A stretch of DNA of 64,000 nucleotides from Promethearchaeia archaeon. Its GTDB lineage: Archaea; Asgardarchaeota; Lokiarchaeia; Sigyniarchaeales; SOKP01. Both the position numbers and the translations under genes were made by a program. Position 1 is the stretch's first letter; each line of letters begins with the position of its first letter. Of this stretch, positions 42,536 through 63,004 are shown one piece after another. The DNA lies in the NCBI GenBank assembly GCA_029856155.1, contig JAHQWL010000103.1:1-64000 (forward strand). The letters run 5' to 3'. The notes below the pieces were generated by a model. The model was not told where the DNA came from. It did not search any database and was given only the letters and a program-made list of their open reading frames with translations.

Positions 42536-42550
42536 TATATAAAGAAAAAA
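42536..42550 (-). promoter_or_regulatory. T-tract/TATA island promoter motif (roadblock-GTPase-RNase operon)
   Basis: TTTTTTCTTTATATA, 52 nt upstream of ATG 42484. Confidence 0.65.
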
Positions 42551-42773
42551 TTTGTGAACCCAAAAAACAAAAGCTAAAGCTCTCGATAGCTGAAGTTTTA
42601 AAGAATTATCTTCATAATTATAACCAGAAACAAGAAATATCTAAGGAGTCAAGTATTGTGAGATTAACTAAAAGGAATAGGAAACTTTCAATTAATGAGT
42701 AAAAGAAACAAGAATTAGGTGTCAATCAAATAATCTGACCTACACCTTCTCCTACTCTTAAATTTAAATCAAT

Positions 42774-43727
42774 TTAATAATTATACAACTCAGTTGACAA
42801 GTATCTTTCCCCAGTATCACATATAATAAATACAATGTTCTGTCCGGCTTCAAATTGTTTTGATACTAAATTTATTGCCGCCCAAGCTATTGCACCCGAG
42901 CTAATTCCTGAAAAAATTCCTTCTAATCTAGCTAAATCTCTTGCTGTTTTAATAGCATCTTCATATTCTACTTGAATAACTTGATCATAAATCTTTGTAT
43001 TAAGAACATCTGGTACAAAACCGGCACCGATTCCTTGAATTTTGTGTGATCCGGGATTTCCCCCTGATAAAACAGGAGAGTCTTTTGGTTCTATAGCGTA
43101 CACCTTCAATTTAGCACCAATTTTTTTTTTTAAAACTTCTCCAACTCCGGTAATAGTTCCTCCTGTACCGACCCCCGCGACAAAAGCATCTACATTCCCA
43201 TCTAGATCATTAATTATCTCAATCGCTGTTGTTTTGCGATGAATTTCTGGATTTGCTAAATTTTTAAACTGTTGGGGAATATATACTTTCCCTTTTTCTT
43301 TGGCGATGTCTTCAGCCTTGACTATTGCACCTTTCATTCCTTCTTCTTTTGGAGTTAAAATTATATCTGCTCCATAAGCTTTTAAAATTTTAACTCGTTC
43401 AATTGATACGCTCTCAGGCATGACAAGAATTAATTTATATCCTTTTGCAGCACAAACTAAAGCCAATCCAATACCAGTATTACCAGAGGTTGGTTCCACA
43501 ATAATTGTTTCGTTATTTATTATCCCCTTTTCCTCTGCTGCTTGAATCATAGCAATTCCAATCCTATCCTTTATACTTCCTCCGGGATTAAAATATTCTA
43601 ATTTAGCATAAAGGTTCGGTTTTGGATTTATATTCTCTACAATTCTATTCAACCTAACTAGAGGCGTTTTACCTATTGTCTCAAGTATGCTGTTATATAT
43701 ATTTGTCATTTTAAATCCCTCCCCCAT
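42774..43727 (-). CDS. cysK: Cysteine synthase A
   Basis: [46 protein letters not shown]; start could be 43709. Confidence 0.95.
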
Positions 43728-44556
43728 GTTTTCCGTAATAAATTTGTATTTCCTCTTGTTTTTTCTTAGTTTTATCTAAGACTCTCACTTCTAATTCTTT
43801 TATTCTTTTATCTAGACTAGAAACTGCAATTGCAATTGGATCTGGTAGATCTCCGTGTCTTAAGTCAATTTTTTCGATTTCTTCTCCTTTTTTAGAAATA
43901 ATTTTACCGGGTACTCCAACCACTACACAATGTGGGGGAACATCTTCTACAATAACTGAATTAGCTCCAACTCTAACATTATCTCCGATTTTGATAGGTC
44001 CTAAGATCTTTGCTCCCGCCCCTATTACCACATTATTACCAATAGTTGGATGTCTTTTCACTTTTTCTAAACTGGTTCCACCCAGCACTACTCCTGAATA
44101 TAAGGTGACATTATTACCGATTTCTGTTGTTTCGCCAATTACAACACCTGATCCATGATCGATAAAAAATTCTGCTCCAATATCAGCACCAGGATGTATT
44201 TCAATTGCAGTTAAATCTCTTGCTATATCCGAAATATATCTAGGGATAAAAGGCATCTTTAATTTCCAAAAGAAATGAGCTATTCTATATAAAAGGACTG
44301 CTTTTACTCCGGGATAACCAGCTAATACTTCAATTAAAGTATTTGCTGCGGGATCTTTATTGAAAGCAGCATTGACATCTGATATAAAAAAATCTAAAAT
44401 TTTTTGTAAATTTCGATCAATTTCTCTATTATCTAAATCTTCAGTCTTAAAATTCAAATTTAATAGACATTCAGTACATTGAGTTTGAATATGTTTAGAT
44501 TTAGGACCTAAGGTTTTACCACAGTTTAAACAACGAATAAATTCATCCATTTCCAT
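43711..44556 (-). CDS. cysE: Serine O-acetyltransferase with N-terminal CxxC...CxxC extension
   Basis: [35 protein letters not shown]. Confidence 0.93.
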
Positions 44557-44739
44557 AATTTCTCACATGAATTATTTTTAGAAATCTCAATTGGAATTAA
44601 TTAATTAAAAAGTTTTGAAATTTCATAAAATTTTTGGTTATAAATAATATATTGTACAGAATAAAGGTTTATGTTCAGTTTAGATTCTTGTTTATCTAAA
44701 TTACTTTTCTTCAAAACAAAAATTTGTTTGTTAAAAGTC

Positions 44740-45663
44740 TTAGATAACTTCTAATATTGTTCTTTTCGTAGAACTAAGCTCTTTTTCATTAGAATAAGTA
44801 AATTCTTTTATAATTACATTGGATAATTTGATACTATTACCATCTTCAATCTTTTTAACGCATTCCACAGCTTGCAACCCCCAAATATTAACTCTAATTG
44901 AGCTTGTATCATCACTTAAAATGAGCTTCAATAGAAAAGATTTCTCACCATTCTTTAATGTTAATTCTTTAAATTCTTGAACTTGAACAATACCCTTGAC
45001 AAAACGTATAAAGCCTTCCTTACTATATAATTCCTCTATTGTGAATTTAGAGGGGACTGGTTTAGAAACCCTTTTCTCAATAGACTTGGAGTGATCCACA
45101 TTCTTAACTTCGGGTAAAATTATTCCCTTTGGAGCCAATATTAGCTTTCCTTGCCTACTTAAATGCACTTCTAAATTATCCTTAATTCCTTTTTTAGAAT
45201 AAGCTCCAACAACTTGGATAATCTCTCCTGTCTGAAAAAATTGATTAGAAATAATCTCTGTTTGGTCATTCCACAACACAACCTTAACACAATCAGATTG
45301 ATCACAAATTTGAAATGAGCCAACTGTTCCTGGAGTCCCATCTTTCCTTAAAAATTCTTTTTTCCCCTGAATTTCAGTTATCCTTCCTGCTATGACAATA
45401 TTTCTCATATTTTCAGTAATATTAGAGATAGGTATTGCGAAGTCATTATAATCTATAATATCTTCTGTTATGCGATCTAAAATCTCATTATTTTCTGAAG
45501 AATCAACTTTGACTCCATTCTCTTTTGCGATTAAATATAAGATTGCTTGTTTGTTCATGAAACCTTGGAATTCAGTTTCTTTTTCCTTAACTTGTGCCGT
45601 AAGATCATCCTCACTCATTCCTGCATCCAACAACGCCTGGTAAATTTCTTCAGCTCGTTCCAC
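44740..45663 (-). CDS. RPA/SSB-like protein with two OB folds
   Basis: N-terminal helical domain (LYLIAKENGV); EFLRKDGTPGTVGSFQICDQSDCVKVVLWN; LILSDDTSSIRVNIWG. Confidence 0.85.
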   Translation of the reverse strand: MERAEEIYQALLDAGMSEDDLTAQVKEKETEFQGFMNKQAILYLIAKENGVKVDSSENNEILDRITEDIIDYNDFAIPISNITENMRNIVIAGRITEIQGKKEFLRKDGTPGTVGSFQICDQSDCVKVVLWNDQTEIISNQFFQTGEIIQVVGAYSKKGIKDNLEVHLSRQGKLILAPKGIILPEVKNVDHSKSIEKRVSKPVPSKFTIEELYSKEGFIRFVKGIVQVQEFKELTLKNGEKSFLLKLILSDDTSSIRVNIWGLQAVECVKKIEDGNSIKLSNVIIKEFTYSNEKELSSTKRTILEVI

Positions 45664-45687
45664 TGTATTATTTCACACCTTTCTATT

Positions 45688-45921
45688 TTATTCATATATA
45701 AAAGGAAAATTGCTTTGTCTATCATTCATATTAAATTTTGAAAGATTAACTTGTTCTGGAGTATTTAGAGGATATATTTCAGGATTTATGTTACAATTCC
45801 ATGAATACACGTGTCTATCATTATTAAATACTACACCAAACTCATTAGAGTGATGAATACAAACGGAAAATTTCCTTCTTCCATATGAATTTATACTTCT
45901 AAATTCATGTTCTAATGACAT
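45688..45921 (-). CDS. Small hypothetical protein
   Basis: 77 aa; GTGA SD-like element; preceded by an exact island promoter motif. Confidence 0.45.
   Translation of the reverse strand: MSLEHEFRSINSYGRRKFSVCIHHSNEFGVVFNNDRHVYSWNCNINPEIYPLNTPEQVNLSKFNMNDRQSNFPFIYE
45695..45709 (-). promoter_or_regulatory. Variant island promoter motif (RPA)
   Basis: TTTTCCTTTTATATA, 32 nt upstream of the GTG. Confidence 0.45.
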
Positions 45922-45977
45922 TTTACATCACTTTCTTTTAATTTTAGAATTATTCTGGAAGAATATTACAAGGAGTC

Positions 45978-45992
45978 TATATAAAGAAAAAA
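45978..45992 (-). promoter_or_regulatory. Island promoter motif
   Basis: TTTTTTCTTTATATA, identical to 42536-42550. Confidence 0.6.
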
Positions 45993-46010
45993 TGCAAAGC
46001 CAAAAATCAA

Positions 46011-46619
46011 TTACTCTGATAAACTTTTGATAAATTTAGAAGTCAAACCAATTTTGTTACGAGTTCTGTGAAATGCATAAGCAGAGCAACTACATAATGC
46101 TCTTAAATTTGACTGAATTATTTTTTGAGGTTCACTTTTAGCAATCAAATCAGTTATAAATATAACAATTGTTAATTGAGTCATTAATTGCGGCCAAAAA
46201 AATAAGGTATCTAACTTGTCTTTTAATCTTCGAGCATTTTCTTTTGCTCGTTTGTAATCGAACACTGGAGCTAGCCGGTAAAATCTATGTAAAATAATGT
46301 TAATAATTTGGTTTTGGTCTCTAGCATGGAGCACCTTTGGATTGTTATTGATAAATTTTCTGAAATTTAGCAAACCAATTAAAAATTCACTGATAAACTT
46401 ATGAACAAGTTTAACTGGAATGTTTAAGGCTTCACTTATGCGCTTATTTTCGGAAGTTGTTATGACTCTTACCTTTTCTCTAATTGTTAAAAAAGAAATA
46501 TTTCGAAACAAGTAATTTAATATAATTGGTTTTAATTTATTCTGAGACTTATAAAAGTTATTATAATAATCATTTATACTGTCTAATTCGAAGCTTTCCT
46601 TTTTTAATGTCTGAGTCAT
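46011..46619 (-). CDS. Helical protein, possible TFB-like cyclin/HTH protein without a Zn ribbon
   Basis: KRISEALNIPVKLVHKF and IVIFITD...IIQSNLRALCSCSAYAFHRTRNKI resemble TFB cyclin-repeat HTH ends. Confidence 0.5.
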   Translation of the reverse strand: MTQTLKKESFELDSINDYYNNFYKSQNKLKPIILNYLFRNISFLTIREKVRVITTSENKRISEALNIPVKLVHKFISEFLIGLLNFRKFINNNPKVLHARDQNQIINIILHRFYRLAPVFDYKRAKENARRLKDKLDTLFFWPQLMTQLTIVIFITDLIAKSEPQKIIQSNLRALCSCSAYAFHRTRNKIGLTSKFIKSLSE

Positions 46620-46668
46620 GATTTCCTCAATGTTTCAATTAAATCTTAATAAATGTTTATAACAAGTG

Positions 46669-46683
46669 TATTTAAACAAAAAA
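46669..46683 (-). promoter_or_regulatory. Island promoter motif
   Basis: TTTTTTGTTTAAATA, 50 nt upstream of ATG 46619. Confidence 0.6.
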
Positions 46684-46725
46684 TAAGTAAAAGTGCTAAA
46701 GGTGTTTCATATTAAAAGAAAAAAT

Positions 46726-47820
46726 TTAGAGAAGATTATCTAATGTAATTTGGAATTTTCGCGGTTTTTGTCTCTGATGAATAAAAAATTCTCTAGAAGC
46801 AGTATAATTTTTTTCAAAGATATCCAGGTTTTTCTCAACACGTTCTTTATTGAGATAATGTTCTTCACATAATAAAGATAATACTCTTGTTTTATTTGCT
46901 GGATTCCAAAATATATTGTCAATTTGTTCATTTATATGAGGAAACAAAAATATTTTTCTCACTTTTTTTATTATATCAGGATTTAACTCACCAAAATCGT
47001 AATTATTATATTCTTTTAGAATAAGGGTCTCAATGGATTTGTATTTTCGAATAAGTTGTAATGCTTTTTTTGATCCAATACCATCAATCCCTGGAAAATA
47101 ATCTATACCAACTAATATCCCAATATCAATGAGTTGAAAAATTGAAATCCCTAAATTCTTTAAATTCTTCTGTAAATCAATTGAGACTGGTTGTATCTTT
47201 TTGTATCTCCATTTTCCCTGAATTTTCCTCTTTAACGATTTCGAGAGATTTTGAATAACATAAGGGCATCCAAATAAGAGTGAATCGAAATCTTGGGAAT
47301 TTGAGAAATTTGCGATTTTTTGTTTTACTAAGAATGCACATTGAGATTCTGCTGAAGCGGGAGAATCTATAAAAGGAATACCCAAAGCTCCCAGAAGTTG
47401 TTTTGATTCTTCTATTATATTCTGCCACATATATTCTTTACTTAAGGCAATTTTTCTTGCTAAATCTCTGTTGTGCTGACTTATAGCTTCCTTATACCAT
47501 TTTCGAATAAAAATGAAATCTTTTAACTGATCTTTTGTTATCACTTTTTTCAGTTCAGAAACTTTTCCATCAAAACAAAAAATAGGAAATATTCTCTTAC
47601 TATAATAAAAATTCACTCGATACAATAAACCATATAAGTGTGATATTGGTCTCTGCGTTCTGTCTAAAATCAATCCCGCGTCAGTTCCATCTGAGTCTTT
47701 GCGAGCAAAGGTGAATAGCCCCATTATAATATTCGGAGCATCAATCGCTATAATTTTACCCTTTAAGTCTTGATATTCAAGTTGCTTTCGAACTATAATG
47801 TTTTGAAGTTTAACTCCCAT
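46726..47820 (-). CDS. fen: Divergent flap endonuclease-1 (FEN1/XPG family) paralogue
   Basis: MGVKL, IAIDA, SHLYGLLYR, FDG, SQDFDSLLFG, VGIDY.PGIDGIG; C-terminal PIP-like QITLDNLL. Confidence 0.88.
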   Translation of the reverse strand: MGVKLQNIIVRKQLEYQDLKGKIIAIDAPNIIMGLFTFARKDSDGTDAGLILDRTQRPISHLYGLLYRVNFYYSKRIFPIFCFDGKVSELKKVITKDQLKDFIFIRKWYKEAISQHNRDLARKIALSKEYMWQNIIEESKQLLGALGIPFIDSPASAESQCAFLVKQKIANFSNSQDFDSLLFGCPYVIQNLSKSLKRKIQGKWRYKKIQPVSIDLQKNLKNLGISIFQLIDIGILVGIDYFPGIDGIGSKKALQLIRKYKSIETLILKEYNNYDFGELNPDIIKKVRKIFLFPHINEQIDNIFWNPANKTRVLSLLCEEHYLNKERVEKNLDIFEKNYTASREFFIHQRQKPRKFQITLDNLL

Positions 47821-47846
47821 GATTAAGAAGTGCTACATAGTGTAAA

Positions 47847-47861
47847 TATAAAAAGAAAAAA
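47847..47861 (-). promoter_or_regulatory. Island promoter motif (FEN1, leaderless-type spacing)
   Basis: TTTTTTCTTTTTATA, 27 nt upstream of the ATG. Confidence 0.65.
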
Positions 47862-47878
47862 TGAATTTTAAAATTAAA

Positions 47879-47947
47879 TTACCATCCTTTTATAAAATGG
47901 TAAAGTCGAAAAAAGACATTAAATATATTTAACTTATTATGCTTCAT
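47879..47947 (-). other. Candidate 22-aa small ORF or small RNA under an island promoter
   Basis: GAGGTGAACT-ATG then MKHNKLNIFNVFFRLYHFIKGW*; motif TTTTTTATTTATATA at 47997-48011. Confidence 0.4.
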
Positions 47948-48048
47948 AGTTCACCTCTAGAATATGGTTATAGGTGAACTTATGATCATATGAGGGTATA
48001 TAAATAAAAAAATGAGATTATAAAATTAGTTGTTAATGAATATCGTCT

Positions 48049-48273
48049 TTAAGTTTTTTTAAAAAGTTTTTTTCGTGTTTCTTCGTCTTTAAGCTCATCA
48101 AATGCATCAACAAAACTACTTAAATCTTCTTCTGCTAGAATATTTTCATCCTCGATGTCACTCTCAAGATCTTCAATAAAAAAGTTCAAATGGCAATGAG
48201 TACATTCAATATGATCTTCATATACAATGACATCTTCCGACTTGCACTCTGGACAGTAATATTCTGAAGGCAT
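48049..48273 (-). CDS. Small TFIIB-type Zn-ribbon protein with acidic tail
   Basis: YYCPECKSEDVIVYEDHIECTHC...ENILAEEDL; motif TTTTTTGTTTTTATA at 48355-48369. Confidence 0.72.
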   Translation of the reverse strand: MPSEYYCPECKSEDVIVYEDHIECTHCHLNFFIEDLESDIEDENILAEEDLSSFVDAFDELKDEETRKKLFKKT

Positions 48274-48467
48274 TCTAGGGATAAAAATTAGACATAACTG
48301 GATAGTTACTAATATTATTATAACTGAGAATTTAAAATTATCATTGCTGATAATTATAAAAACAAAAAAAGGGAATTTGATGGGAATTTTTTCTCACCTT
48401 CTAATACTGATTAACTTTTAGTTTTATTTCATCTTTTTAAATAAAAATCGAGTTTTGACAGTACGGC

Positions 48468-48482
48468 TTTTTTCTTTAAAAG
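48468..48482 (+). promoter_or_regulatory. Island promoter motif in a divergent intergenic region
   Basis: TTTTTTCTTTAAAAG. Confidence 0.5.
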
Positions 48483-48599
48483 TGTATGAAAAAATTATCA
48501 CACAAAATTATTAGGTAAAAATGGTGAAACACCATCTCTAAAAAAAGATATTATAATTCAATTGAAGTATTATATGACCAAAAGGCAACCTCGCGAACA

Positions 48600-48920
48600 T
48601 TGATGATGGTTATTTTTGGAATTGCTTTATTTGTACTTATTTTTTTTCCATTCTATGGCATAAGTTTAAGATTTCATCTAGGATATATATTGAAAAAACT
48701 TTTTGATACGATAGGGAGATTTTCTTTGATTGGGGGCGCATTTTTAATAATTTTGTGTTTGATAAGTGTTTTTCTTGGAAGAAAAATAAGAGTAGGATGG
48801 TTTATAGTGGCAATAGTGTTGCTATGGGTCGGTAGTTGGTCTACAGGAATTATTATTGATATCTGGGGTTTTATTATTGGTACTTCTGAGAATACCGGAG
48901 GAGGAAGTGGATACTTCTAA
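48600..48920 (+). CDS. Small three-TM membrane protein
   Basis: Three hydrophobic helices; Gly-rich C-terminus. Confidence 0.65.
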   Translation: MMMVIFGIALFVLIFFPFYGISLRFHLGYILKKLFDTIGRFSLIGGAFLIILCLISVFLGRKIRVGWFIVAIVLLWVGSWSTGIIIDIWGFIIGTSENTGGGSGYF

Positions 48921-48963
48921 TTAATTTTTGAGAATACTTTTCACTTAATTTGATAAAGCAATA

Positions 48964-49182
48964 TCAATAAATTCGAAAATATCTTAATCCTGTATTAATC
49001 CCGCAGACTGTTAATAGAATAATTGAAACAACAACAACTCCTATCATTTTATGACGCTGAAATTGTCCTAAAAATAGCCATCCAAGAATCCCTATAATCA
49101 ATCCAAGCAGTCCGATTATTGAACCTAATGCCAATAGAAATTTAATTGCTTCTCCTATCTGATCAAAATAATCAAACATCAT
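48964..49182 (-). CDS. Small helical-hairpin membrane protein, VirB2/CedA1-pilin-like architecture
   Basis: Amphipathic N-terminus, TM1 LLALGSIIGLLGLIIGILGWLFLG, basic loop QRHK, TM2 MIGVVVVSIILLTVCG. Confidence 0.6.
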   Translation of the reverse strand: MMFDYFDQIGEAIKFLLALGSIIGLLGLIIGILGWLFLGQFQRHKMIGVVVVSIILLTVCGINTGLRYFRIY

Positions 49183-49206
49183 TATACTACTTAATAGGAT
49201 GCTATA

Positions 49207-49251
49207 TTTATAAATAAAAAAAACAAATAGCCGATTATTTTTCTTTAAATA
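49207..49251. promoter_or_regulatory. Back-to-back island promoter motifs
   Basis: Minus strand TTTTTTATTTATAAA (49207-49221, 25 nt from ATG 49182); plus strand ATTTTTCTTTAAATA (49237-49251, 50 nt from ATG 49301). Confidence 0.62.
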
Positions 49252-49300
49252 TTTGAGATTTACTTAAGCTGTAATCAATCAAATATCTTGTATATCTAAT

Positions 49301-50675: not shown

Positions 50676-50719
50676 ATATAAGTTAAAAAAATAAATTTCT
50701 TTTTCTTATCATTTTACAT

Positions 50720-51125: not shown

Positions 51126-51506
51126 TTAAACTTTCCCATTCAATTTCAAGGCTGTATTCTGGATATTGGATAAAGAATTGTGGGGATCTGCTTTAGGCAT
51201 GATATAACACACCAGTATCCCTCCCTTAAATGGGACTAACACGACATGCCCATTTCCAGCTTTATCTGTTCCTATTATAGCTTCAGGAGTATTATAGACA
51301 ACCGCAAAATCCACTCCCATTAAATTGAGGGAGTTACTACCCTTGAGTGTATCCAGAATAGTCTTTGATTCTTTGGTTAAATCCCAATTAGCACCTTTTT
51401 GATAAATAATTTTCCCTTTACTCGACATAACGGAAACAGCAGCTACTTTATACCACTCGAGTTCCACTAATTCATCAATGATCTTTTCAACGTCAGTAAT
51501 TACCAT
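51126..51506 (-). CDS. Asgard (Loki-type) profilin
   Basis: IIDELVELE, GKIIYQ..NWDL, GVDFAVVYNTPE.IIGT..GNGHVVLVP, ILVCYIMP; GAGGT SD. Confidence 0.8.
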   Translation of the reverse strand: MVITDVEKIIDELVELEWYKVAAVSVMSSKGKIIYQKGANWDLTKESKTILDTLKGSNSLNLMGVDFAVVYNTPEAIIGTDKAGNGHVVLVPFKGGILVCYIMPKADPHNSLSNIQNTALKLNGKV

Positions 51507-51607: not shown

Positions 51608-52837
51608 TTAAGAATTCATTAATGCTTTTGCATTATTTTGCCATTCATTTACTGTCTTTACCGAAGCTCCTGAGATACTAGCTGAAAGTTCTTCTGGATT
51701 TGCTGCTAACAAGTCTGAAACTGTCATAATCCCTTGAGCATTTAAATTCTCTACAGTTCCTTTGCCAATTCCTTTTACTTGAATTAGATTAACTTCCTCT
51801 TGTTCAACAACCTCTTGATCTTGGTTTGTATCATCATCTTCATACAATGTTTCAACTTTAAAATCTAACCCAGATGCCTCTGGAAGCTCACATTTATCTG
51901 TATCTGCGACTCCAGTACCTGTTATGAAAAACTCACATTCTTCAGGGGGTAAGTCGGGAGCATCCACTATAACTGCTCTACGCTTGAGGGAATTATTCGA
52001 AGAGAAACCCTTTGTCTTGAACATGACTCGAAAATGACATCCATGCGCAACAATATTGCCACCAATAGCATCATCTCCGGAAAACATTCCCATCATTCTG
52101 GTAGCTACTTGATTCGTAAGCAAGACCGCACAATTATACGTTTCAGCAACTCGTGATAATCCATGAATCATATTGTTAAGAACTGCTTGACGCGGGGCTA
52201 GCTTTCCAATACCGATGTATTCTGCCCTCAATAATGCCATTAAGCTATCAATTATTATTAAACGAACTCCACGAGTTTTACAAAGAGATTCAGCTTTTTG
52301 GATCATTTGGGCTTGATGATCGGATGAGTAAATCCTTGCATGAAATATTTTTGAAAGTACATCTTTTGGATTTAGTTCAAATCGCTTAGCAATTCGTTTA
52401 ATCTTTTCTTTTGAGAATGTATTTTCAGTGTCAACGTAAGCAACCGCGCCATTTATTCCTCCTTTTTTTTCTGGTAATTGAACCGTTACTGATATTGTGT
52501 GTGCTAAGGCAGTCTTTCCAGACTTAAATGGTCCGTACACTTCCGTTAGTTTTCCAGTTTGAAAACCTCCTCCTAAGATGCGATTTAATTCCGCTGAACC
52601 GGTTGTAAAATATTCTACATTGTCATCAATCTTAGCCGCAGGAGTAAAATCAGTCATACCTAGTGCGTTTCTTGCATTCCATATGAGTTTTTTAGCAGTC
52701 TTATCACCTAATCCATCAATTGTAGCAACAGTTGAATGAGGACTCATCGCTAAAGCTTCCGCTGTGCTTATTCCATTCTCTTGCAATAATTTTATTTGGC
52801 GTGAATTAATTCCTTTCACTTGATCTAAATCTGCCAT
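51608..52837 (-). CDS. radA: RadA/Rad51-family recombinase with an extra C-terminal HhH domain
   Basis: N-terminal HhH domain, FTPA polymerisation motif, GPFKSGKT, YVDTENTF, LIIIDS, TNQV, GGNIVAH. Confidence 0.92.
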   Translation of the reverse strand: MADLDQVKGINSRQIKLLQENGISTAEALAMSPHSTVATIDGLGDKTAKKLIWNARNALGMTDFTPAAKIDDNVEYFTTGSAELNRILGGGFQTGKLTEVYGPFKSGKTALAHTISVTVQLPEKKGGINGAVAYVDTENTFSKEKIKRIAKRFELNPKDVLSKIFHARIYSSDHQAQMIQKAESLCKTRGVRLIIIDSLMALLRAEYIGIGKLAPRQAVLNNMIHGLSRVAETYNCAVLLTNQVATRMMGMFSGDDAIGGNIVAHGCHFRVMFKTKGFSSNNSLKRRAVIVDAPDLPPEECEFFITGTGVADTDKCELPEASGLDFKVETLYEDDDTNQDQEVVEQEEVNLIQVKGIGKGTVENLNAQGIMTVSDLLAANPEELSASISGASVKTVNEWQNNAKALMNS

Positions 52838-52895: not shown

Positions 52896-52910
52896 TATTT
52901 AAAGAAAAAA
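52896..52910 (-). promoter_or_regulatory. Island promoter motif (radA)
   Basis: TTTTTTCTTTAAATA, 59 nt upstream of the ATG. Confidence 0.62.
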
Positions 52911-54778: not shown

Positions 54779-54854
54779 CTGAATTTATTGTTTTATATAT
54801 AAATTTGAATTAATTTATTGAAAGTTGAATAAAAATATAAATTCTGACATTAAT

Positions 54855-54929
54855 GAGAAAAAGAAAAGAAAAAATCACCCCCCTTTTTCCCTGCAGAGGT
54901 GATTAAATGGGTTGGGAGGAAGTTATATT
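54855..54929 (-). ncRNA. Candidate small RNA with C-rich/anti-SD segments, hairpin and U-tail
   Basis: Island motif at 54953-54967; CUUCCUCCC; stem AAUCACCUC/GGGGUGAUU; UUUUCUUUUCUUUUU. Confidence 0.4.
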
Positions 54930-54976
54930 ATAAATTAAATTACTATTAATTGTATTTAAAGAAAAAATAGGCTAAC

Positions 54977-55363: not shown

Positions 55364-55406
55364 GAAGTATCTATATAACCAGAGTATTTAAAGAAAAATT
55401 AATGGA

Positions 55407-56114: not shown

Positions 56115-56115
56115 C

Positions 56116-56460: not shown

Positions 56461-56467
56461 TTTTTAA

Positions 56468-57208
56468 TCACCATTCGGTATGTGGTTTTTTTGGTTTATA
56501 ATGTTTACGAGTAAAAGGTTTCATTCTGACCTTTGGGGGTTTTTTATAATCTCTCGAATGTAATATATCCAAAGTTTTGTGTATGCCAATAAAACTGAAT
56601 TTCAATAATAAGTAAAGTCCGGCAATTGCTAAATAATAAAAGACATCTAATAAGAAGTAAATCTGAAAGGTTGCTAAGATCAGCCATAAGATTATTGTTG
56701 AAAGGATAACAAGAAATATCTGATACCATGAATGTGTAGAGTCATCCCTGAATGCTCTCGAAATCATTCTAAAATCTCCTGAAGATGGTGCTGCCGTCAA
56801 AAGTAATGAAAAAGAAATAAATCCCGCAAAAACTCTAATAATTGGTAGAAATTGGGGATTGAATACCACTCCAAACCACAAATAAAAAATAAGCCATGTA
56901 CTTAAATATAGGGGAGCGAAACTTATTAGAAATGTCTGTAGAAAACTTAGAGGTTTTCCAGGTTTAACTAATCCACGCGGATTTCTAGATCCATCTTTTT
57001 CATTATGCCACTTGATCTCGATACGATCGGGAACATGTCCAACTACCAAGCTCATGAAATAATGACAGAATTCATGAAAAATAACTCCTATAAAAAATAA
57101 ACGTATAGTAATGGATTTAAATAGACCTGCGTTGTCACTCAATAAAAAACGTGATACAATAAGAGATATAATTAAGATGCCAAGGAATACTAAAGGTTCT
57201 TCAATCAT
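56468..57208 (-). CDS. Membrane zinc metalloprotease (M50B/DUF3267-like)
   Basis: FHEFCH (HExxH), ISFAPL, APSSGD; likely ATG 57208, 22 nt from motif TTTTTCCTTTAAATT (57230-57244). Confidence 0.75.
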   Translation of the reverse strand: MIEEPLVFLGILIISLIVSRFLLSDNAGLFKSITIRLFFIGVIFHEFCHYFMSLVVGHVPDRIEIKWHNEKDGSRNPRGLVKPGKPLSFLQTFLISFAPLYLSTWLIFYLWFGVVFNPQFLPIIRVFAGFISFSLLLTAAPSSGDFRMISRAFRDDSTHSWYQIFLVILSTIILWLILATFQIYFLLDVFYYLAIAGLYLLLKFSFIGIHKTLDILHSRDYKKPPKVRMKPFTRKHYKPKKPHTEW

Positions 57209-57598
57209 GCAATAATATAGTACCAAAGTAATTTAAAGGAAAAATCCAATCTTTTTGTTAAATTTTTGTTTTTTTTTGGGGTGATCTTGGATATTATATT
57301 TCTGAAGCGGGAGAATTCTAATAACAAGGGTTTCATATTTTAATGACAGTGTATGTAAAATGCAAAACGAATTAATGAGCTATATTAAGCTTGAATGGAG
57401 AATTGTCTATAGAGATTGTTCCCCCATGAAATCTGGTCAATTATTGGCGAGATAATTAAGAATCGCAACCTCTAGTTATATTGACAAAAATGTCAGTGAT
57501 CGATAAAATGCAAATTTTCTAGAAATTTTTGTGAACAGTTGAAAACCACCTCTCAAAATTTAAGAGAAGAAGCCTTCTTTTCACCGTTCAATTTTTGA

Positions 57599-57613
57599 GG
57601 AAAAGGTTTAAAA
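57599..57613 (+). promoter_or_regulatory. Canonical purine-rich BRE + TATA upstream of the tfb paralogue
   Basis: GGAAAAGGTTTAAAA, ~45 nt upstream of GTG 57658. Confidence 0.55.
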
Positions 57614-57657
57614 TCAAAACTCCTACCTTATATTCTTTAGTAAAATAAAAAAAAATA

Positions 57658-58911
57658 GTGATCAAAACATTGGCAACGTATAAAACACTACAAGAAAGTA
57701 GACTTTCTCCTGATTTGGCACACTTATCTTGCGATATTTGTGGTTCTGCTGATATTTTAGAAACTAGAGAGGGGTATGTGTGTAAAAAATGTGGTGTAGT
57801 ATTAGAAATCCAGAAATTGCAATATGATAGACCTTATAATGAAGACATAATCCAATATGCAAAGGGCGTAGGCACAACTCAAATAGGAACAAGGCGAGAA
57901 AGGGCGATCTCGCCTCTTTCTATTAAATTGCAAAGAATAAACAAATACAATTCTATAACCACCACTGAACGAGCTGTAATTGAGAAAGCTCGGATTGAAA
58001 TTGCGAGAATCTTTAATTATTTAGGTTTAGATGGTGGATATGATGCTATAAAAGAAATGGTATTATCCAAGTTCAAAAGCCTTAGAGCTCACATTAGGTC
58101 AGGTTCAAAATATAGAAGTGTAGAGAAGTTAGTTTCAATCACAATTTATTTCTGTCTTAAACTTAGGAATGTTTCTATTAATCCATATGAGTTGATTGAA
58201 ATATCGAAAATTACAAAAAAGGAGTTCAATGATTTCAACTTACAACTTCAAAGATTTTTACCCCATTATGCCGAACGTAATAGGCAGAAATATATTCTAC
58301 AGAGGATTTTTGAACTTTCTGAACATTTTGATTTAGGAATGCCTTTTTATTATCTTTCTAAAAAGATTTTATATAGATTGTGGCATGGAATCAAAAATAC
58401 GACAGATAATGTAGTAGCAGGATTAATCAGTTCTATTTCAGTTTTATGTTCATGCAAAGATAAGGTAAGTATAAGTTCTATTTGTAATCGTTTAGGAATC
58501 AGAATGAGTACAATTCAATCTCAGGTCAAGAAAAGGATCTTTGAAAGGTTTCAAGGTGAAGGATTTATCAGTCTAATAAAATCGTCTGATATTTTAGTAC
58601 GATTAATGAAAAGGTTAGGACTTTTGGGAGAACAAGCAATCGAAACTCAAGAAGAGACTTGCATATCTGATAAGGAAGAGATTATAATGGGTAATGCTGC
58701 CAATATATTTAACGGTCATGATAATTTTGACTATTATTATTACGCGATGAGGGGAGAAAACAAAAAACCCTTAATCGTCACTTTAAAAATTAATGAATTT
58801 CCTTTGATGTTTAAATCTGAAAAAAAGTCGAAAATGAAACCCGATTATTTACTTAATTTTGAAATATTTCATTATTATTGTTCAAAAGATCCTCCTAAAA
58901 TAGGTACTTGA
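57658..58911 (+). CDS. tfb: Divergent transcription factor B (TFB/TFIIB) paralogue
   Basis: Zn ribbon CDICGS...GYVCKKCGVVL; cyclin repeat 1 (RSVEKLVSITIYFCLK...ELIEISKITKKEF); cyclin repeat 2 with HTH SISSICNRLGIRMSTIQ; ~100-aa C-terminal extension. Confidence 0.8.
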   Translation: MIKTLATYKTLQESRLSPDLAHLSCDICGSADILETREGYVCKKCGVVLEIQKLQYDRPYNEDIIQYAKGVGTTQIGTRRERAISPLSIKLQRINKYNSITTTERAVIEKARIEIARIFNYLGLDGGYDAIKEMVLSKFKSLRAHIRSGSKYRSVEKLVSITIYFCLKLRNVSINPYELIEISKITKKEFNDFNLQLQRFLPHYAERNRQKYILQRIFELSEHFDLGMPFYYLSKKILYRLWHGIKNTTDNVVAGLISSISVLCSCKDKVSISSICNRLGIRMSTIQSQVKKRIFERFQGEGFISLIKSSDILVRLMKRLGLLGEQAIETQEETCISDKEEIIMGNAANIFNGHDNFDYYYYAMRGENKKPLIVTLKINEFPLMFKSEKKSKMKPDYLLNFEIFHYYCSKDPPKIGT

Positions 58912-59032
58912 CAGTCAGTATAGATAAGAACTAATTTTTAAAATTTTTTTTATTTTCTTTGATTCCTACTAAAATTCTGATTTAATTTTTTAAGTTGGAG
59001 GGATCTACCTTTATATCTTTATATAAAATAAA

Positions 59033-59389
59033 TTACTTATCCTGGTGTTTCTTTTTACTTTCTACTAAAATTTCTTCTATCATGGTTTTTAAATTAGGAA
59101 TACTATTTTTGATTGTTGTCCAAACTAACTTATAATCAATACCAAAATATGAATGAATTAATCTATCTCTCATTCCTGCCATTTCTTTCCAAGGAATTTT
59201 GGGATATTTTGTCCTTGTATCATCAGTAATATTTTTTGTAGCTTCTCCAAGTATTTCAAACTTCCTAATAACTGCACTTGAAGTTTTATCATCTTCTTGA
59301 AATTCTTCGAATGTCATGTTTTCAACGAACTCTATAATTTTATTAATAGATTCAATGATATCTTTTAAATATATATTTTGATTTCTCAT
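59033..59389 (-). CDS. HEPN (DUF86, HepT-like) toxin
   Basis: IPWKEMAGMRDRLIHSYF (RxxxxH). Confidence 0.92.
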   Translation of the reverse strand: MRNQNIYLKDIIESINKIIEFVENMTFEEFQEDDKTSSAVIRKFEILGEATKNITDDTRTKYPKIPWKEMAGMRDRLIHSYFGIDYKLVWTTIKNSIPNLKTMIEEILVESKKKHQDK

Positions 59390-59688
59390 GAATAGATTAC
59401 CGTTTTTAAAATCGAATCTTTTAATTCTTCCCTTAATGCATTTATTGGTACAACATCCACTTTACATCTAAATTTTTCCTCAAGAAATAGAGAAAGCCCA
59501 ATGAAATCAAATAGATCTGCATCTTCTCCAAATTCAACAAGTAAATCGATATCACTAATATCCTTATGTGTTTCACTCGCATAGGATCCAAATAAACCTA
59601 ATTCTTTGACTTTATACTTATCTTTTAATATTTTTTTCAGATTAGTAAGTGTCTTAAGAATCTCTTTTTTGCTTAGCATCTTTAACAA
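59386..59688 (-). CDS. Minimal nucleotidyltransferase (MntA-like) antitoxin
   Basis: LFGSYA...SDIDLLV...KVDVV; ATGA overlap with the toxin gene. Confidence 0.92.
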   Translation of the reverse strand: MLKMLSKKEILKTLTNLKKILKDKYKVKELGLFGSYASETHKDISDIDLLVEFGEDADLFDFIGLSLFLEEKFRCKVDVVPINALREELKDSILKTVIYS

Positions 59689-59902
59689 ATCATTTTATAC
59701 TCTGTTATTATAAATATACAATTTTTAATATTTTAATGATACATGTTTAGATTGTAATGCTAATGTTATATATTATCCTTTTTAATTTCATAATTAAATC
59801 TATAGAAAGAATTATTGTATAGATAGTTTGGATTAGATATTGGATTTCTTTTGTTATCTCTCTTTAATTTTTTTATTTTCTATGAATGTTGTAGCGTATT
59901 GA

Positions 59903-59917
59903 TTTTTTGTTTAAATA
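59903..59917 (+). promoter_or_regulatory. Island promoter motif in a divergent region
   Basis: TTTTTTGTTTAAATA, identical to 46669-46683; 55 nt upstream of ATG 59972. Confidence 0.62.
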
Positions 59918-59971
59918 AGTTCGCTATAATTCTAACAGTAACCTCTTATAACTTATGTAGAATCGAAGAAA

Positions 59972-62950
59972 ATGAATAATAAAAAAGTCCTTTTTGTGAG
60001 TATTATAGTTGTTTTGATGTTAAGCATTAGTATATTTCACTCCGATATTTCTAAGAGTTTCACTCTAGCAAGTGAAAATTTTGCATATGGCGAAATAGAG
60101 TATCCAGAATTAGCTTCTTCAAGCAATAATGAAATCATCAATTCTATTTTTGATGCAAGAGTATCTGACTATTCTGATTTGGGGTATTTCCCTCAGATCT
60201 ATGAACCTTCAATACAAGCAACCTATTATGCCCTCTTCATTTTTGATGCGATTGGAAAACTGAACCACATAAATCAATCTGAAATAATCAATTACATTAT
60301 GTCTCAATATGATGGAAGTTCAAACAGATTTATGGATACATTAGCATATCGATATTTAGATACTGACTTCTCCAAAACGTATTTTCCCTTAAATTCTATT
60401 TTAGAAGTTAATTGTTATGCTATTCTTTCTTTAAATATATTAAATCGCACAGACTTATTTAATACGCAAGGAATGATCGATTTCATTTGGGATTGTTATA
60501 ATCCAGAAACAAGTGGCTTTATTGGACAGCCTTACAGTGCAGAATTAGAGGAGGGATTTAGAGTTTCAACAGCAGATAATACATTTTTTGCGGTATTTAC
60601 ACTCAACTTATTGATGGATAATTGGGTGGGGTACTCCTCTAAAATACAAGATATAATTCAATATATAAATAATTTACAATATCCTGGAGGATTAGGTTGG
60701 ATGGGAGGGGGATTTCGAAATGATGATAATACTTTTGTTGATACTTTGAATCCCTTTTTTGAGCCCAATCTAATTTCTTCTTATTACTGCATAAAAGCAT
60801 TAGAGATATTTGGTATGGAAGAATCTATAAATATTGTTGATTTTCACCAATTTCTTGATTATCTGTATGATTCAAATTCTAACTATTTTCGAATATCTGA
60901 GTGGGATTACGGTGTGAATTATACTAACGTAGTTGCAACCGCTCTTGGATTAGAACTTTCAGATATCACTAGCTATGGAAATATCGATAGAGATGATGCA
61001 ATTGCGTTTATTATGGGGAATCGGAATTCTTTTGGAAATTGGGATGAGTCCACCATAGTTAAAATTCATGAATTAATTGATACCTTTCAAATTATCCGAT
61101 CTCTGAGAAATAGTAATGAAACCTCTCAGTTCTCATTGGAAGCAAAAAATCAAATAGGAAACTCAACCTTAAGTTACTCTTCTTATGAAGTGTATTCTCT
61201 GCTTTCAGATGATTACACTTCTATGAGTTATTTGCACACGATAATTTCTTCATTTTCATTATTTGATCGTATTTCAGATTTAGAGATTCAAGAGCTTTAT
61301 ACGCGTATTAAAAATTCTTATATTGATTTTGCTGATTTTGGGATAAGTCGATATTTTTATGGTTATCTCTTAGATGAAACTGAGATACTTTGGTTCCGAT
61401 CTCATCCAATTGAATATTATACTTCAGGCCATAAAAATTACCTTAAAGATATTTCTCAGCTGAATTCTCATAAATCCACATATTTCGCACTAGAGTCTTT
61501 GCAAAAGCTCTTTAAGTTGGATGATTTTGCTACAGAATTTGATCTTATGAGTTTAGTAAACGATATCGTTGATACTCAATTTTTAAATGATACGTATTAC
61601 GAAAATTATGGGGGTTTTTCACCGATTTTAAAGTATGATGTTGACCGATCAGAGTACCTCAATACGATGATTTATTGCGAATATACTTATTATGCTTTAA
61701 GATGTTTAGAGATCCTTTCTAATTATCTGACTCTTAATATTACCGATTTAGGATTCGATATTACAGCATTATATACATATCTTAATAGAAATACTATCGA
61801 GAATACTGAAACTCTTTACTTCAATCCAAGTTATACATCAGATGTTGAGACTATCTTACAAAATACCTATTACATGATCTATATTATGAAAATGTTGAAT
61901 TTATATGACAAAAATACTGAAAAAATCGAAAATTACGTAGAAAATAACCTCAACTACAATAATATTAAGAATATTTATTATAGCTATAAGATCTCAGAAA
62001 TATTAGGCTTGGATATTAGTTTTGATATTAGCTTAACTCAAGATTTAATACAAAGCATCTATTCTGAAGAAAGAGAAGAATTTTACTTAACACCTGATAA
62101 AATAAAAATAGAATTAGACACTTTTTTATGGATCTCTGAGATGGCGAGGAATAGTCAAATTGGAATTAATGCTCAATATTGTAGTCAAGTTCCATTAGGG
62201 GGAGTTAACCACATGGAAGTCTCGCTGTCTAATCTTATTGTGAGAGATTTTGGTTCATATATTTCCTTTAAATTTGAAAGTGACCAAATAGGGACTATTA
62301 ATTTTAATAAACTAGAAAATAATATTTATGTAGCAGATGTACCAATTCCAATGAATTCTGAAAATTATCCTATAGTTGCAGGAGTATTGTATGCCTATGA
62401 AGGAGCACGGGTAAAAGCCGAGTATAACGTCATTTTTAATACCATATATTCTTTAGCCTATAATCTTAATATATCAAAAACTGCGTCTAAAGTAAAATTT
62501 GAAGTAAATGGTTCAATATTAGCCAATGAAAATGAATACGCCTTAATTAATGGAAGTGTTTATACTGTGATCTACAAAGATGACATAATAATTGCCACAC
62601 AAAATTTCGGGCATATTAATCTCAATGAATCGAGTATATTTATTCTTGAATATATACCAATAGAAAATGGTTCTTACTATTTTGAGATTTACCTTGAAGA
62701 TGGATTTCAAGAATCGGAAGTCGAAATCGGAAACACATTATTCATCAAAAACGTCGATAACCCCCATGATCCCGATGACCCTGATGATCCCGACGATCCT
62801 ATTAATTCACACCAAAATTATGAAGAGAGCATTAAAACAGCAATCCCTCTCATGATTGCTTTTATAGGAGTACCTGGATGTGTTATCGCGATATCCTCTA
62901 AACAACTTGGTAAGGTTAAAAAACGACCAGAATACAACAATTCAAAGTAA
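59972..62950 (+). CDS. Large surface protein with prenyltransferase/squalene-cyclase-like alpha/alpha repeats and C-terminal TM anchor
   Basis: Signal peptide; repeated TYYAL..L, GGF, SGF motifs; DPHDPDDPDDPDDP linker; C-terminal TM plus basic tail. Confidence 0.8.
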   Translation: MNNKKVLFVSIIVVLMLSISIFHSDISKSFTLASENFAYGEIEYPELASSSNNEIINSIFDARVSDYSDLGYFPQIYEPSIQATYYALFIFDAIGKLNHINQSEIINYIMSQYDGSSNRFMDTLAYRYLDTDFSKTYFPLNSILEVNCYAILSLNILNRTDLFNTQGMIDFIWDCYNPETSGFIGQPYSAELEEGFRVSTADNTFFAVFTLNLLMDNWVGYSSKIQDIIQYINNLQYPGGLGWMGGGFRNDDNTFVDTLNPFFEPNLISSYYCIKALEIFGMEESINIVDFHQFLDYLYDSNSNYFRISEWDYGVNYTNVVATALGLELSDITSYGNIDRDDAIAFIMGNRNSFGNWDESTIVKIHELIDTFQIIRSLRNSNETSQFSLEAKNQIGNSTLSYSSYEVYSLLSDDYTSMSYLHTIISSFSLFDRISDLEIQELYTRIKNSYIDFADFGISRYFYGYLLDETEILWFRSHPIEYYTSGHKNYLKDISQLNSHKSTYFALESLQKLFKLDDFATEFDLMSLVNDIVDTQFLNDTYYENYGGFSPILKYDVDRSEYLNTMIYCEYTYYALRCLEILSNYLTLNITDLGFDITALYTYLNRNTIENTETLYFNPSYTSDVETILQNTYYMIYIMKMLNLYDKNTEKIENYVENNLNYNNIKNIYYSYKISEILGLDISFDISLTQDLIQSIYSEEREEFYLTPDKIKIELDTFLWISEMARNSQIGINAQYCSQVPLGGVNHMEVSLSNLIVRDFGSYISFKFESDQIGTINFNKLENNIYVADVPIPMNSENYPIVAGVLYAYEGARVKAEYNVIFNTIYSLAYNLNISKTASKVKFEVNGSILANENEYALINGSVYTVIYKDDIIIATQNFGHINLNESSIFILEYIPIENGSYYFEIYLEDGFQESEVEIGNTLFIKNVDNPHDPDDPDDPDDPINSHQNYEESIKTAIPLMIAFIGVPGCVIAISSKQLGKVKKRPEYNNSK
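62761..62800 (+). repeat. 9-bp-period coding repeat (Pro-Asp-Asp linker)
   Basis: ccccatgat cccgatgac cctgatgat cccgacgat cct. Confidence 0.7.
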
Positions 62951-63004
62951 GAATAACAAATTCTAAATTTTTTCTTTTTATTTTATCATTTTATTCTTCT
63001 GTTA

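Follow-up and report, generated by a model that had tools for sequence, protein, structure and literature searches.

The window, a 64,000-nt stretch of a contig in a Lokiarchaeia (Promethearchaeota) MAG, raises the question of why many genes in one part of it are preceded by five to six T, a C and then a TATA box, and which factor would read such an element. The first-pass annotation had reported about 16 copies of this T-tract/TATA motif. All 16 listed 15-mers were found where it had placed them, on the same strands, and six copies indeed lie in divergent intergenic regions (48355/48468, 49207/49237, 57230, 59903). The tally was incomplete, as one copy had been missed (46710-46724, minus strand) and two more lie past the window on the same contig (~66622 and ~67816). 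The promoters and genes discussed below are listed in Table 1.

Between 41.9 and 64 kb, we counted 17 intergenic copies against a dinucleotide-shuffle mean of 0.52 and a maximum of 3 (300 shuffles), a ~33-fold enrichment for a pattern taken from the very sites counted. Less circular evidence therefore comes from a PWM built on relatives and from flanking positions that the pattern does not include. The PWM trained on relatives alone scored high at 10/28 cluster genes vs 9/3057 elsewhere (p = 5e-17), and the PWM with flanks at 11/28 cluster genes vs 10/3125 elsewhere in the genome. The first 39.5 kb yielded 2 intergenic matches against a shuffle mean of 1.28. The earlier statement that the first 39 kb holds a single partial match did not stand, since three more loose ones occur there (4312+, 6156-, ~28243-), at background level. 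The T-tract motif is a local promoter class and not the general promoter of the genome, and it is confined to one conserved regulon.

Table 1. Cluster genes and promoter features in the window; promoters are of the T-tract/TATA type unless described otherwise.
Coordinates	Strand	Feature	Remarks
39593..42484	-	182-aa protein, Arf/MglA-like GTPase, NYN nuclease	one shared T-tract promoter
42536..42550	-	promoter, 182-aa protein-GTPase-NYN operon	predicted start ~42514; motif upstream of 15/17 orthologues
44740..45663	-	RPA paralogue (OB folds)	
45695..45709	-	weak variant upstream of RPA paralogue	no initiator; weakest site; uncertain
45978..45992	-	promoter, 77-aa ORF and RPA paralogue	predicted start ~45956
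46669..46683	-	promoter, 202-aa conserved protein	predicted start ~46647; 12/13 orthologues
46710..46724	-	extra copy overlapping FEN1 stop	found too in L001, L015, L018
46726..47820	-	FEN1 paralogue	
47847..47861	-	FEN1 paralogue promoter, near-leaderless	21 nt in many relatives
47879..47947	-	22-codon ORF with Shine-Dalgarno site	C-terminal 9 residues nearly identical in 5/7 relatives checked
47997..48011	-	promoter, conserved 22-aa micro-ORF	predicted start ~47975
48355..48369	-	promoter, 74-aa stand-alone Zn-ribbon protein	divergent pair with 48468
48468..48482	+	promoter, small membrane protein	divergent pair with 48355
49207..49221	-	near-leaderless promoter, 72-aa two-TM hairpin protein	divergent with 49237
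49237..49251	+	promoter, 105-aa Zn-ribbon protein and 355-aa membrane-anchored protein	15/15 orthologues
51608..52837	-	RadA paralogue, C-terminal HhH domain	
52896..52910	-	RadA paralogue promoter	predicted start ~52874
54953..54967	-	exact copy with initiator	hairpin and U-tract next, no long ORF; not conserved in closest relative
55385..55399	-	leaderless promoter, 128-aa Zn-finger protein	21 nt to ATG
57230..57244	-	leaderless promoter, HExxH membrane protein/membrane protein/RadB-like operon	21 nt
57564..57582	+	conserved inverted repeat upstream of TFBx promoter	operator or hairpin candidate; pairing kept although the arms vary (by eye)
57599..57627	+	TFBx promoter: TATA preceded by a purine-rich element; T-tract absent	conserved C-rich box at 57617-57627
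57670..58911	+	TFBx, divergent full-length TFB paralogue	ORF opens 57658; likely start TTG at 57670
59903..59917	+	promoter, 992-aa membrane-anchored alpha/alpha-toroid protein	
62968..62982	+	leaderless promoter, 200-aa protein/Hef/Zn-finger operon	22 nt

The copies could be poly-T terminators or chance matches, given that the intergenic DNA is ~83% AT, that T-tracts serve as terminators in archaea and that the whole genome contains 232 loose matches. The enrichment over shuffles, a fixed 21-nt spacing and an initiator signal leave this reading a negligible probability. Among 16 relatives, whose sites are not independent of one another, we found 92 matches in 89 divergent regions, 81 sense vs 9 antisense matches in tandem regions, and 5 matches in 68 convergent regions. 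The divergent-to-convergent asymmetry refuted terminators and chance matches, and the promoter reading of the first-pass annotation held up in these positional counts.

A spacing of exactly 21 nt to the start codon, the peak of the leaderless-ATG spacing, was observed at 26/129 sites and agrees with the leaderless TATA peak of the genome at 21-24 nt. Two classes of motif-to-start distance had been proposed, at 22-27 and 50-59 nt; the classes remained, with values corrected to 21-26 nt for leaderless genes and, in most other cases, 45-58 nt. In the 79 leadered sites, a pyrimidine-purine step was located at nt 21-22 after the TATA in 66% (background 20%), and nt 22 was A in 84%. This initiator, seen at 15/18 sites on this contig, stands in leadered genes at the same distance as the leaderless ATG. 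Moreover, the 6th nt after the TATA was a purine in ~87% vs 46%, across 12 gene families, and A was found at -11 in ~63% vs 36%. Counted from the predicted start site, the T-tract spans -36 to -31, C follows at -30, and the TATA octamer occupies -29 to -22. Downstream, position -16 is any base but T and mostly a purine, -11/-10 are A/W, and a pyrimidine-A initiator comes last.

Judged from this layout, the motif behaves as a core promoter: as expected of archaeal TBP/TFB promoters, the TATA lies in sense orientation 20-30 nt upstream of the predicted start, with an AT-rich -11/-10 region and a pyrimidine-purine initiator. The canonical archaeal BRE-TATA promoter read by TFB/TBP (P. woesei complex, PDB 1D3U) shares the last two features, many leaderless mRNAs and the position of its TATA octamer, roughly -29 to -22. 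Unlike in that system, the class is limited to one regulon, and the purine-rich BRE directly upstream of the TATA was absent at the motif sites, which carry the pyrimidine T-tract plus C instead. The T-tract was correctly assigned to the BRE position. The two purine-rich promoters chosen earlier for comparison do exist (at 19297 and 57599). A purine-rich housekeeping BRE in the host was only weakly resolved (purine fraction 0.54 vs 0.47).

An element at this position may also be the operator of a separate repressor or activator overlapping the BRE, like an SOS box against the TATA. Binding over BRE/TATA is common among archaeal regulators (PMC12993045), and the cluster encodes several small uncharacterised basic or Zn-finger proteins (202, 200, 158 and 128 aa). 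Nevertheless, we consider an operator quite improbable, as the element forms no palindrome, keeps one strict orientation and abuts the TATA with zero spacing, exactly where the second helix-turn-helix of TFB binds. Pfam and NCBIfam searches assigned no cluster protein to a regulator family, and the candidate 202-aa protein had no profile similarity to TFB.

A candidate reader of the T-tract, the TFB paralogue TFBx, is encoded inside the same cluster. It aligned with the TFB profile over 251 columns (hhalign 97.4%, E = 1.4e-11), and all top Foldseek matches of its AlphaFold model were TFIIB/TFB/Brf, with TM 0.78 and rmsd 3.6 for the P. woesei TFB core (1d3u). The Zn ribbon matched Pfam PF08271 with E = 2.8e-5, below the curated cut-off, and its four Cys are conserved at 90-100%; PF00382 gave no match to TFBx. 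By profile and predicted fold, TFBx is a TFB/TFIIB-family protein. Like canonical TFB (PDB 1D3U), it contains a Zn ribbon and two cyclin repeats that end in a helix-turn-helix, but its recognition helix (residues ~280-290) and B-reader are rewritten and it carries a tail of ~100 aa.

The BRE-reading helix of TFB binds the upstream BRE (PMC4581349). Its canonical form is kept in all ten other TFB-core proteins of the genome (plus one fragment) and replaced in TFBx, where the helix is near-invariant among 108 homologues (M283 107/108, S284 108/108, Q287 107/108, Q289 106/108). The second helix-turn-helix of TFBx lacks the residues common to all ordinary TFBs, and the canonical B-reader motif was absent from TFBx, a different conserved segment taking its place. 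Lacking that motif, and being ~16% identical to solved TFBs, TFBx might not support initiation alone. Tyr164, Lys168 and Lys187 are kept at 90% or more and presumably match the TBP contacts of TFIIB.

Since the genome also encodes these ten TFB-core proteins and three TBPs, the core promoter could instead be read by an ordinary TFB (or a particular TBP) plus an activator. The T-tract would then be a deliberately poor BRE that keeps genes silent until TFB is brought in by the activator, in the manner of TFB3 or Lrp-type activators, and TFBx would be a co-activator or a mere regulon member. Sulfolobus TFB3 is able to activate although it has no DNA-binding helix (PMC6101594), and the stand-alone Zn-ribbon proteins of the cluster recall truncated TFB3. 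Some genomes lacking a TFBx match also contain motif copies; in near-complete ones, strict-motif counts exceeded the control (30 vs 9 in G037, 16 vs 6 in G025, 15 vs 9 in G030). In G037, cluster fragments lie at contig ends, which makes an assembly gap likely. In G030, cluster-type genes are preceded by strong sites, but no TFBx and no RadA paralogue were found. We still regard reading by an ordinary TFB as unlikely, because a merely poor BRE need not stay near-invariant across 12 gene families and many genera. Furthermore, the canonical helix of all ordinary TFBs contrasts with the different, almost invariant one of TFBx, and helix and element change together between families.

TFBx and the T-tract cluster co-occur across genera of the family. 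Sister-family genomes have a different helix with an ASTVY core and a T-rich upstream element with G at -3 from the TATA. The sister motif, which was derived from cluster sites later counted, had 5/19 and 5/21 of its genome-wide matches inside sister clusters and 0/18 on this contig, while the home-family motif gave 0/5 and 0/7 in sister clusters. On these matches, motif specificity is reciprocal between the two families, which amount to one evolutionary contrast.

Taken together, these sequence comparisons suggest that TFBx probably reads the T-tract promoters of the recombination cluster as a sigma-like regulon. TBP would bind the TATA box, as in archaeal transcription generally, and TFBx would read the T-tract in place of the purine BRE and recruit RNA polymerase. 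The promoter of TFBx has conserved operator-like boxes and no T-tract, so housekeeping machinery could turn TFBx on, perhaps in response to a signal. TFBx would then activate ~18 transcription units together, in a two-step cascade resembling that of an alternative sigma factor. Our literature search found no paper on the T-tract promoter/TFBx system.

The cluster comprises second copies of RadA, RPA, FEN1, Hef and Hel308, plus membrane proteins. This gene content points most likely to DNA exchange with homologous recombination or to damage repair, the two being about equally probable. In relatives, the cluster also encodes a membrane-anchored VirB4-fold protein of ~1,270 aa with multi-TM partners (TrwK/VirB4 match, E = 6e-13). 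We did not find the VirB4-like operon in this assembly, where the contig ends at the point at which relatives run on into it. An integrated provirus or conjugative element with its own late promoters and TFB would fit the VirB4-fold protein and the patchy distribution (TFBx in 92/126 family genomes, the cluster in 2-3 copies in some assemblies). Such an element is, however, very improbable: the GC content of the cluster equals that of the genome, the sole integrase-family gene lies on another contig, the window holds no tRNA, no long flanking repeat was found, and similarity follows host taxonomy. Moreover, the Walker A motif of the VirB4-like protein is degenerate, and the regulon, its promoters retained, is scattered: one closed genome has it at five or more chromosomal sites, a second one at two. 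A domesticated mobile-element origin of the cluster is possible.

Sulfolobales TFB3 is likewise a TFB paralogue in control of genes for DNA transfer and repair, among them one for a VirB4/HerA-like ATPase, and its DNA-damage regulon contains Ups pili and Ced DNA import (PMC6101594). TFB3 is a truncated protein made of a Zn ribbon and a coiled coil; it has no DNA-binding helix and acts through TFB1, whereas TFBx retains both cyclin repeats and is paired with a promoter element of its own. Recombination genes are TFB3-independent in Sulfolobus, whereas the RadA, RPA and FEN1 paralogues belong to the regulon here. Genes for Ups-type pili were not seen here, nor were any for ComEC, DprA or type IV pili identified. 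A full-length TFB paralogue also drives a defined gene wave in the Sulfolobus TFB2 cell-cycle regulon (bioRxiv 10.64898/2026.09.06.749720). At TFB2 promoters the BRE is similar and its spacing is altered, whereas here the element sequence itself is different, and TFB2 activates itself, while the TFBx promoter lacks the T-tract.

The expanded TFB families of haloarchaea and Thermococcales were also proposed to be sigma-like. However, the TFB regulons of haloarchaea overlap, with only subtle differences between their BREs, and Thermococcus TFB1 and TFB2 have no apparent promoter selectivity, whereas the present cluster physically links the paralogue to a sharply different element and to the target genes. 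In streptococcal competence, one alternative factor, ComX/SigX, acts at a rare promoter (cin-box) to express a recombinase, a single-strand binding protein, a helicase and membrane genes. By analogy, TFBx may be one alternative initiation factor that governs a similar gene set through a rare promoter, although it is not homologous to ComX at the sequence level.

We tentatively extend this to a sigma-like switch in Lokiarchaeia, a possible but doubtful scenario in which the re-specified TFB would induce cell contact, DNA transfer via a domesticated VirB4-type machine and recombination with the second recombinase set. If true, relatives of the eukaryotic host lineage, including both cultured Lokiarchaeia, would have a regulated parasexual state, and the system would parallel, in archaea, the way in which TFIIB split into factors specific to promoter classes. 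Ced/Ted DNA import (PMC9905601) is similarly chromosomal and resembles the clusters in the membrane-anchored VirB4-fold protein with multi-TM partners of relatives and in the small two-TM hairpin protein of the window. It differs from them in the size and degenerate Walker A of the VirB4-like protein, and the counterparts of the pilin (VirB2) and of VirB6, a channel with 6-7 TM helices, are at most candidates here. The 72-aa hairpin protein had no significant match in PDB or Atlas and is a pilin candidate, VirB2-like by anatomy. The proteins neighbouring the VirB4-like protein of relatives contain 2-4 predicted TM segments.

All 15-mers listed in the first-pass annotation as copies of the T-tract motif (T5-6, C, TATA box) were found at their coordinates and strands. 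The copies are enriched: 41.9-64 kb of the window has 17 intergenic matches, where 300 shuffles averaged 0.52 and never exceeded 3. The first 39.5 kb, described there as nearly motif-free, contained 2 intergenic matches versus 1.28 expected by shuffling. Genome-wide, 57 matches lay within 100 nt of a start, and 14 of these belonged to the recombination-gene cluster. As the original search pattern was derived from window sites, we retrained a weight matrix on the sites of other genomes only. At a threshold of at least 14 bits, this matrix detected 10 of 28 cluster genes versus 9 of 3,057 others (p = 5e-17); with flanks included, the counts were 11/28 and 10/3,125. This specificity for cluster genes makes the T-tract motif a regulon-specific element. 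To judge from matrix scores, perhaps five to ten regulon members are located elsewhere in the genome, where gene calls came from a self-trained hexamer model and start codons are approximate. The match at the SnoaL-like gene is probably incidental, with no initiator-based support.

The motif showed core-promoter behaviour. Across the cluster regions of 16 relatives, 92 copies occupied 89 divergent gaps, 81 sense versus 9 antisense copies were found in tandem gaps, and 68 convergent gaps contained five. These gap-type and orientation counts exclude the reading of the motif as a terminator. Upstream of orthologous genes, the spacing to the start codon was exactly 21 nt at 26 of 129 sites, in agreement with the 21-24 nt at which TATA boxes of leaderless genes peak elsewhere in the genome. 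The strongest evidence for core-promoter behaviour lies outside the search pattern. We used leadered sites, whose position is not fixed by an ATG and whose initiator the pattern does not cover. At 79 such sites, a pyrimidine-purine step was present at nt 21-22 after the TATA octamer in 66% (background 20%), and nt 22 was A in 84%. The same step was found at 15 of the 18 sites on the host contig (binomial p about 1e-8). Moreover, the sixth nucleotide after TATA was a purine in about 87% of cases across 12 gene families (46% in the background), and the eleventh was A in about 63% (36%). The layout thus reads, from sequence, as a T-tract at -36 to -31, C at -30, TATA at -29 to -22, a purine at -16, A/W at -11/-10 and the initiator, which bears out the earlier placement of the T-tract in the BRE position, directly before C and TATA. 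In orthologous promoters, the layout positions were retained while the flanks dropped to background identity. With enrichment, orientation, 21-nt spacing and initiator all backing the proposed core-promoter reading, the T-tract motif is almost certainly a core promoter. The ordinary BRE of the host was weakly visible (purine fraction 0.54 versus 0.47), because intergenic DNA is about 83% AT; tRNA upstream regions were uninformative for the housekeeping BRE. The small-RNA candidate at 54953(-) gained no support from its promoter, which is not kept in the nearest relative (L001), where the hairpin is.

The cluster contains a divergent TFB paralogue, TFBx, with a Zn ribbon. Profile-profile comparison with the ordinary TFBs of the genome gave 97.4% probability over 251 columns. 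The AlphaFold model (mean pLDDT 72, core about 85-95) matched TFIIB, TFB and Brf best; the TM score to the P. woesei TFB core was 0.78. Searches of the PDB by sequence, single or profile, returned no match, and the TFB relationship is therefore visible only by folding and profile-profile comparison. TFBx has no canonical B-reader. The canonical recognition helix, as in 1D3U, is retained by all ten other TFB-core proteins of the genome, whereas the helix of TFBx differs and has lost both arginines. Its own sequence is near-invariant, with M283, S284, Q287 and Q289 present in 106-108 of 108 homologues, which form their own clade. The second helix-turn-helix of TFB contacts the upstream BRE (PMC4581349).

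TFBx was present in 92 of the 126 genomes of the host's family, and the cluster and its motif were found again in every family genus examined. In the other sampled Asgard families, TFBx was not found, except for one partial tail match. In the sister family, two closed genomes (4,324,194 and 6,035,313 bp) both have the cluster and a TFBx. The TFBx helix of these genomes carries an ASTVY core in place of the host-family sequence, and their cluster promoters, mostly leaderless with 21-22 nt spacing, read T-rich, G, any, T, TATA. Of all matches to the sister motif in the two genomes, 5 of 19 in one and 5 of 21 in the other fell inside the clusters (expected 0.09 and 0.22), whereas none of 18 was on the host contig; the host-family motif was absent from the sister clusters. 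The distinct promoter class and its linked TFB paralogue, in which the recognition helix is altered, are conserved jointly and have changed jointly between families. This co-change of helix and element supports, and does not prove, a link between TFBx and the T-tract, since only one evolutionary contrast underlies it and the clusters counted were also the source of the sister pattern. In the host's family, a genus represented by four genomes with His for Gln287 shows C at -31 at about half of the sites (about 10% elsewhere), an association that, among close kin, is a hint only.

Two findings count against TFBx as the reader of the motif: its lack of a canonical B-reader, and motif copies in genomes where it was not found. 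Five near-complete genomes lacked a TFBx match and had 30, 16, 15, 9 and 4 strict motif copies versus 9, 6, 9, 7 and 12 for controls. In the genome with 30 copies, the RadA paralogue, Hef and Hel308 were broken over contig ends, so its TFBx is probably missing through assembly. Two of the five had the motif at background and no RadA paralogue, one had a few cluster-type genes with strong motif sites, and another showed an excess over its control. In Lokiarchaeia families further removed from the host (G010 and G012; L213-L215), neither the T-tract motif nor TFBx occurred in the stretches read; their related cluster has FEN1, RadA, Hel308 and a homologue of the VirB4-like protein that is short, at 530 aa.

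Spanning ~39.6-70.3 kb of its contig, the cluster includes genes for RPA, FEN1 and Hef, for a RadA paralogue that ends in an HhH domain, and for a RadB-like ATPase and a Hel308-type helicase. A GTPase-NYN nuclease operon, Zn-ribbon proteins and a set of membrane proteins (72, 105, 246, 355 and 992 aa) are encoded there too. Genomes without the cluster retain two other RadA-family genes, so the cluster recombination genes are extra copies. The 72-aa protein gave no significant match to CedA1/VirB2 pilin, and searches with the 355- and 992-aa proteins gave no specific assignment. The idea that the 202-aa protein is a cyclin-only TFB was not supported, as profile comparison showed no resemblance to either TFB or TFBx. 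In relatives, the cluster runs on into a four-gene membrane operon past the point where the host contig stops. Its 1,270-aa protein occurred in 98 of 126 family genomes; neither it nor the operon was found in the host assembly, and the host copy probably lies beyond the contig end. The best match of the model of this protein was VirB4/TrwK (E=6e-13), followed by HerA, and its Walker A motif is degenerate. Features with their coordinates are collected in the table.

Coordinates of features in and around the regulon (no prefix, window; C, contigs of the host genome; L, loci of relatives)
Feature	Location	Observation
SnoaL-like gene	27765-28257 (-)	Loose T-tract match 21 nt upstream, retained in one relative
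cysK/cysE pair	42774-44556	Breaks up cluster, no motif; missing from most relatives' clusters
22-codon ORF, unannotated	47879-47947 (-)	Shine-Dalgarno site and own T-tract promoter; final nine residues near-identical in five relatives
126-aa protein, profilin-like by eye	51126-51506 (-)	3' of RadA paralogue, without motif; no match in Pfam or NCBIfam
Possible ~70-nt non-coding transcript	54860-54931 (-)	Exact promoter at 54953(-), initiator, hairpin, U-tract
tfbX promoter	57564-57627 (+)	C-rich box conserved downstream of TATA, ahead of the start; conserved inverted repeat at 57564-57582, upstream of both
TFBx ORF	57658-58911	Likely start 57670
HEPN toxin-like gene and neighbour	59033-59688	Break up cluster, no motif; missing from most relatives' clusters
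High-scoring motif copies outside cluster	C83:15301-15759, C83:70031-71596, C64:4710-5180, C26:119801-120082, C83:19948-20664, C44:1054-2760	Mostly unknown proteins; C83:19948 protein has homologues in other genomes' clusters, motif 21 nt upstream there
Membrane operon of four genes (HhH protein; small proteins of 250 and 290 aa; 1,270-aa protein)	L182:10868-18277, L196:1985-9487	Same promoter, most relatives
GNAT acetyltransferase, QueC/HUP-domain protein, 408-aa protein	L085:6847-10773, L182:3474-7154, L197:14134-19452	T-tract promoter in several relatives
Core-only TFBx copy, 232 aa, no Zn ribbon	L085:6135-6833 (+), L116:14253-14951 (-)	Leaderless T-tract promoter; two genomes, one genus

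The cluster is very unlikely to be a mobile element. Its GC content is unremarkable, att-like repeats are absent, the sole integrase-family gene sits on another contig, and in closed genomes the regulon is dispersed over several places with its promoters retained. The cysK/cysE pair and the HEPN toxin-like gene look inserted into it.

The tfbX promoter has no T-tract; its TATA box is purine-rich or mixed on the upstream side. The arms of its inverted repeat differ among relatives yet still pair, and the 450-nt length of the upstream intergenic region is conserved. The repeat and the C-rich box were found upstream of no other gene in the host genome, and thus no wider circuit was found. We propose that a signal would act at the tfbX promoter, with tfbX transcribed by the housekeeping TFB, and that TFBx with TBP would then recognise the T-tract promoters and switch on about 18 units. 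We consider TFBx the likely reader of these promoters. The core-only TFBx copy could be a feedback element, a candidate feedback inhibitor. Its gene content suggests that Lokiarchaeia have an inducible state of recombination or DNA exchange, which the regulon would serve. As to its purpose, DNA exchange with recombination has a little less than an even chance; damage repair with no exchange is possible at a lower probability, and another role, e.g., in dormancy or a developmental state, is unlikely.

For two decades it has been debated whether the several TFBs of archaea work as sigma factors do, because the known paralogues either read similar BREs or have no DNA-binding helix. Here, a rewritten helix, a sharply different element and the target genes are all co-located and change together between two families, which offers a clean in vitro test of a sigma-like TFB. 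We regard the promoter class as real and its code as unusually clear; the genes are proposed to form an alternative TFB regulon that works in the manner of an alternative sigma factor regulon. In contrast to TFBx, TFB3 is truncated and has no DNA-binding helix, and recombination genes are outside its regulon (PMC6101594). Sulfolobus TFB2 is also unlike TFBx, since in its promoters the BRE stays similar and the spacing is altered (bioRxiv 10.64898/2026.09.06.749720). Comparison with the Ced/Ted systems (PMC9905601) is through the VirB4-fold protein of relatives with its degenerate Walker A motif. Our literature search returned no report of a T-tract promoter or a TFBx paralogue, and no published description of Asgard promoters was found in the literature searched.

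The window is positions 1-64000 of contig C103 of the host assembly (4.1 Mb, 29% GC). Judging from the RadA-like protein of the window, which is 69-95% identical to proteins mostly from Promethearchaeota, the host is a Lokiarchaeia-type Asgard archaeon. Rfam and tRNA searches of the window gave no match. Just 15 tRNAs are assembled in the genome, and ARAGORN called a selenocysteine tRNA on contig C44. Ten ordinary TFB-core proteins and one fragment are encoded in the genome, as are three TBPs; haloarchaea are known for expansions of this scale.
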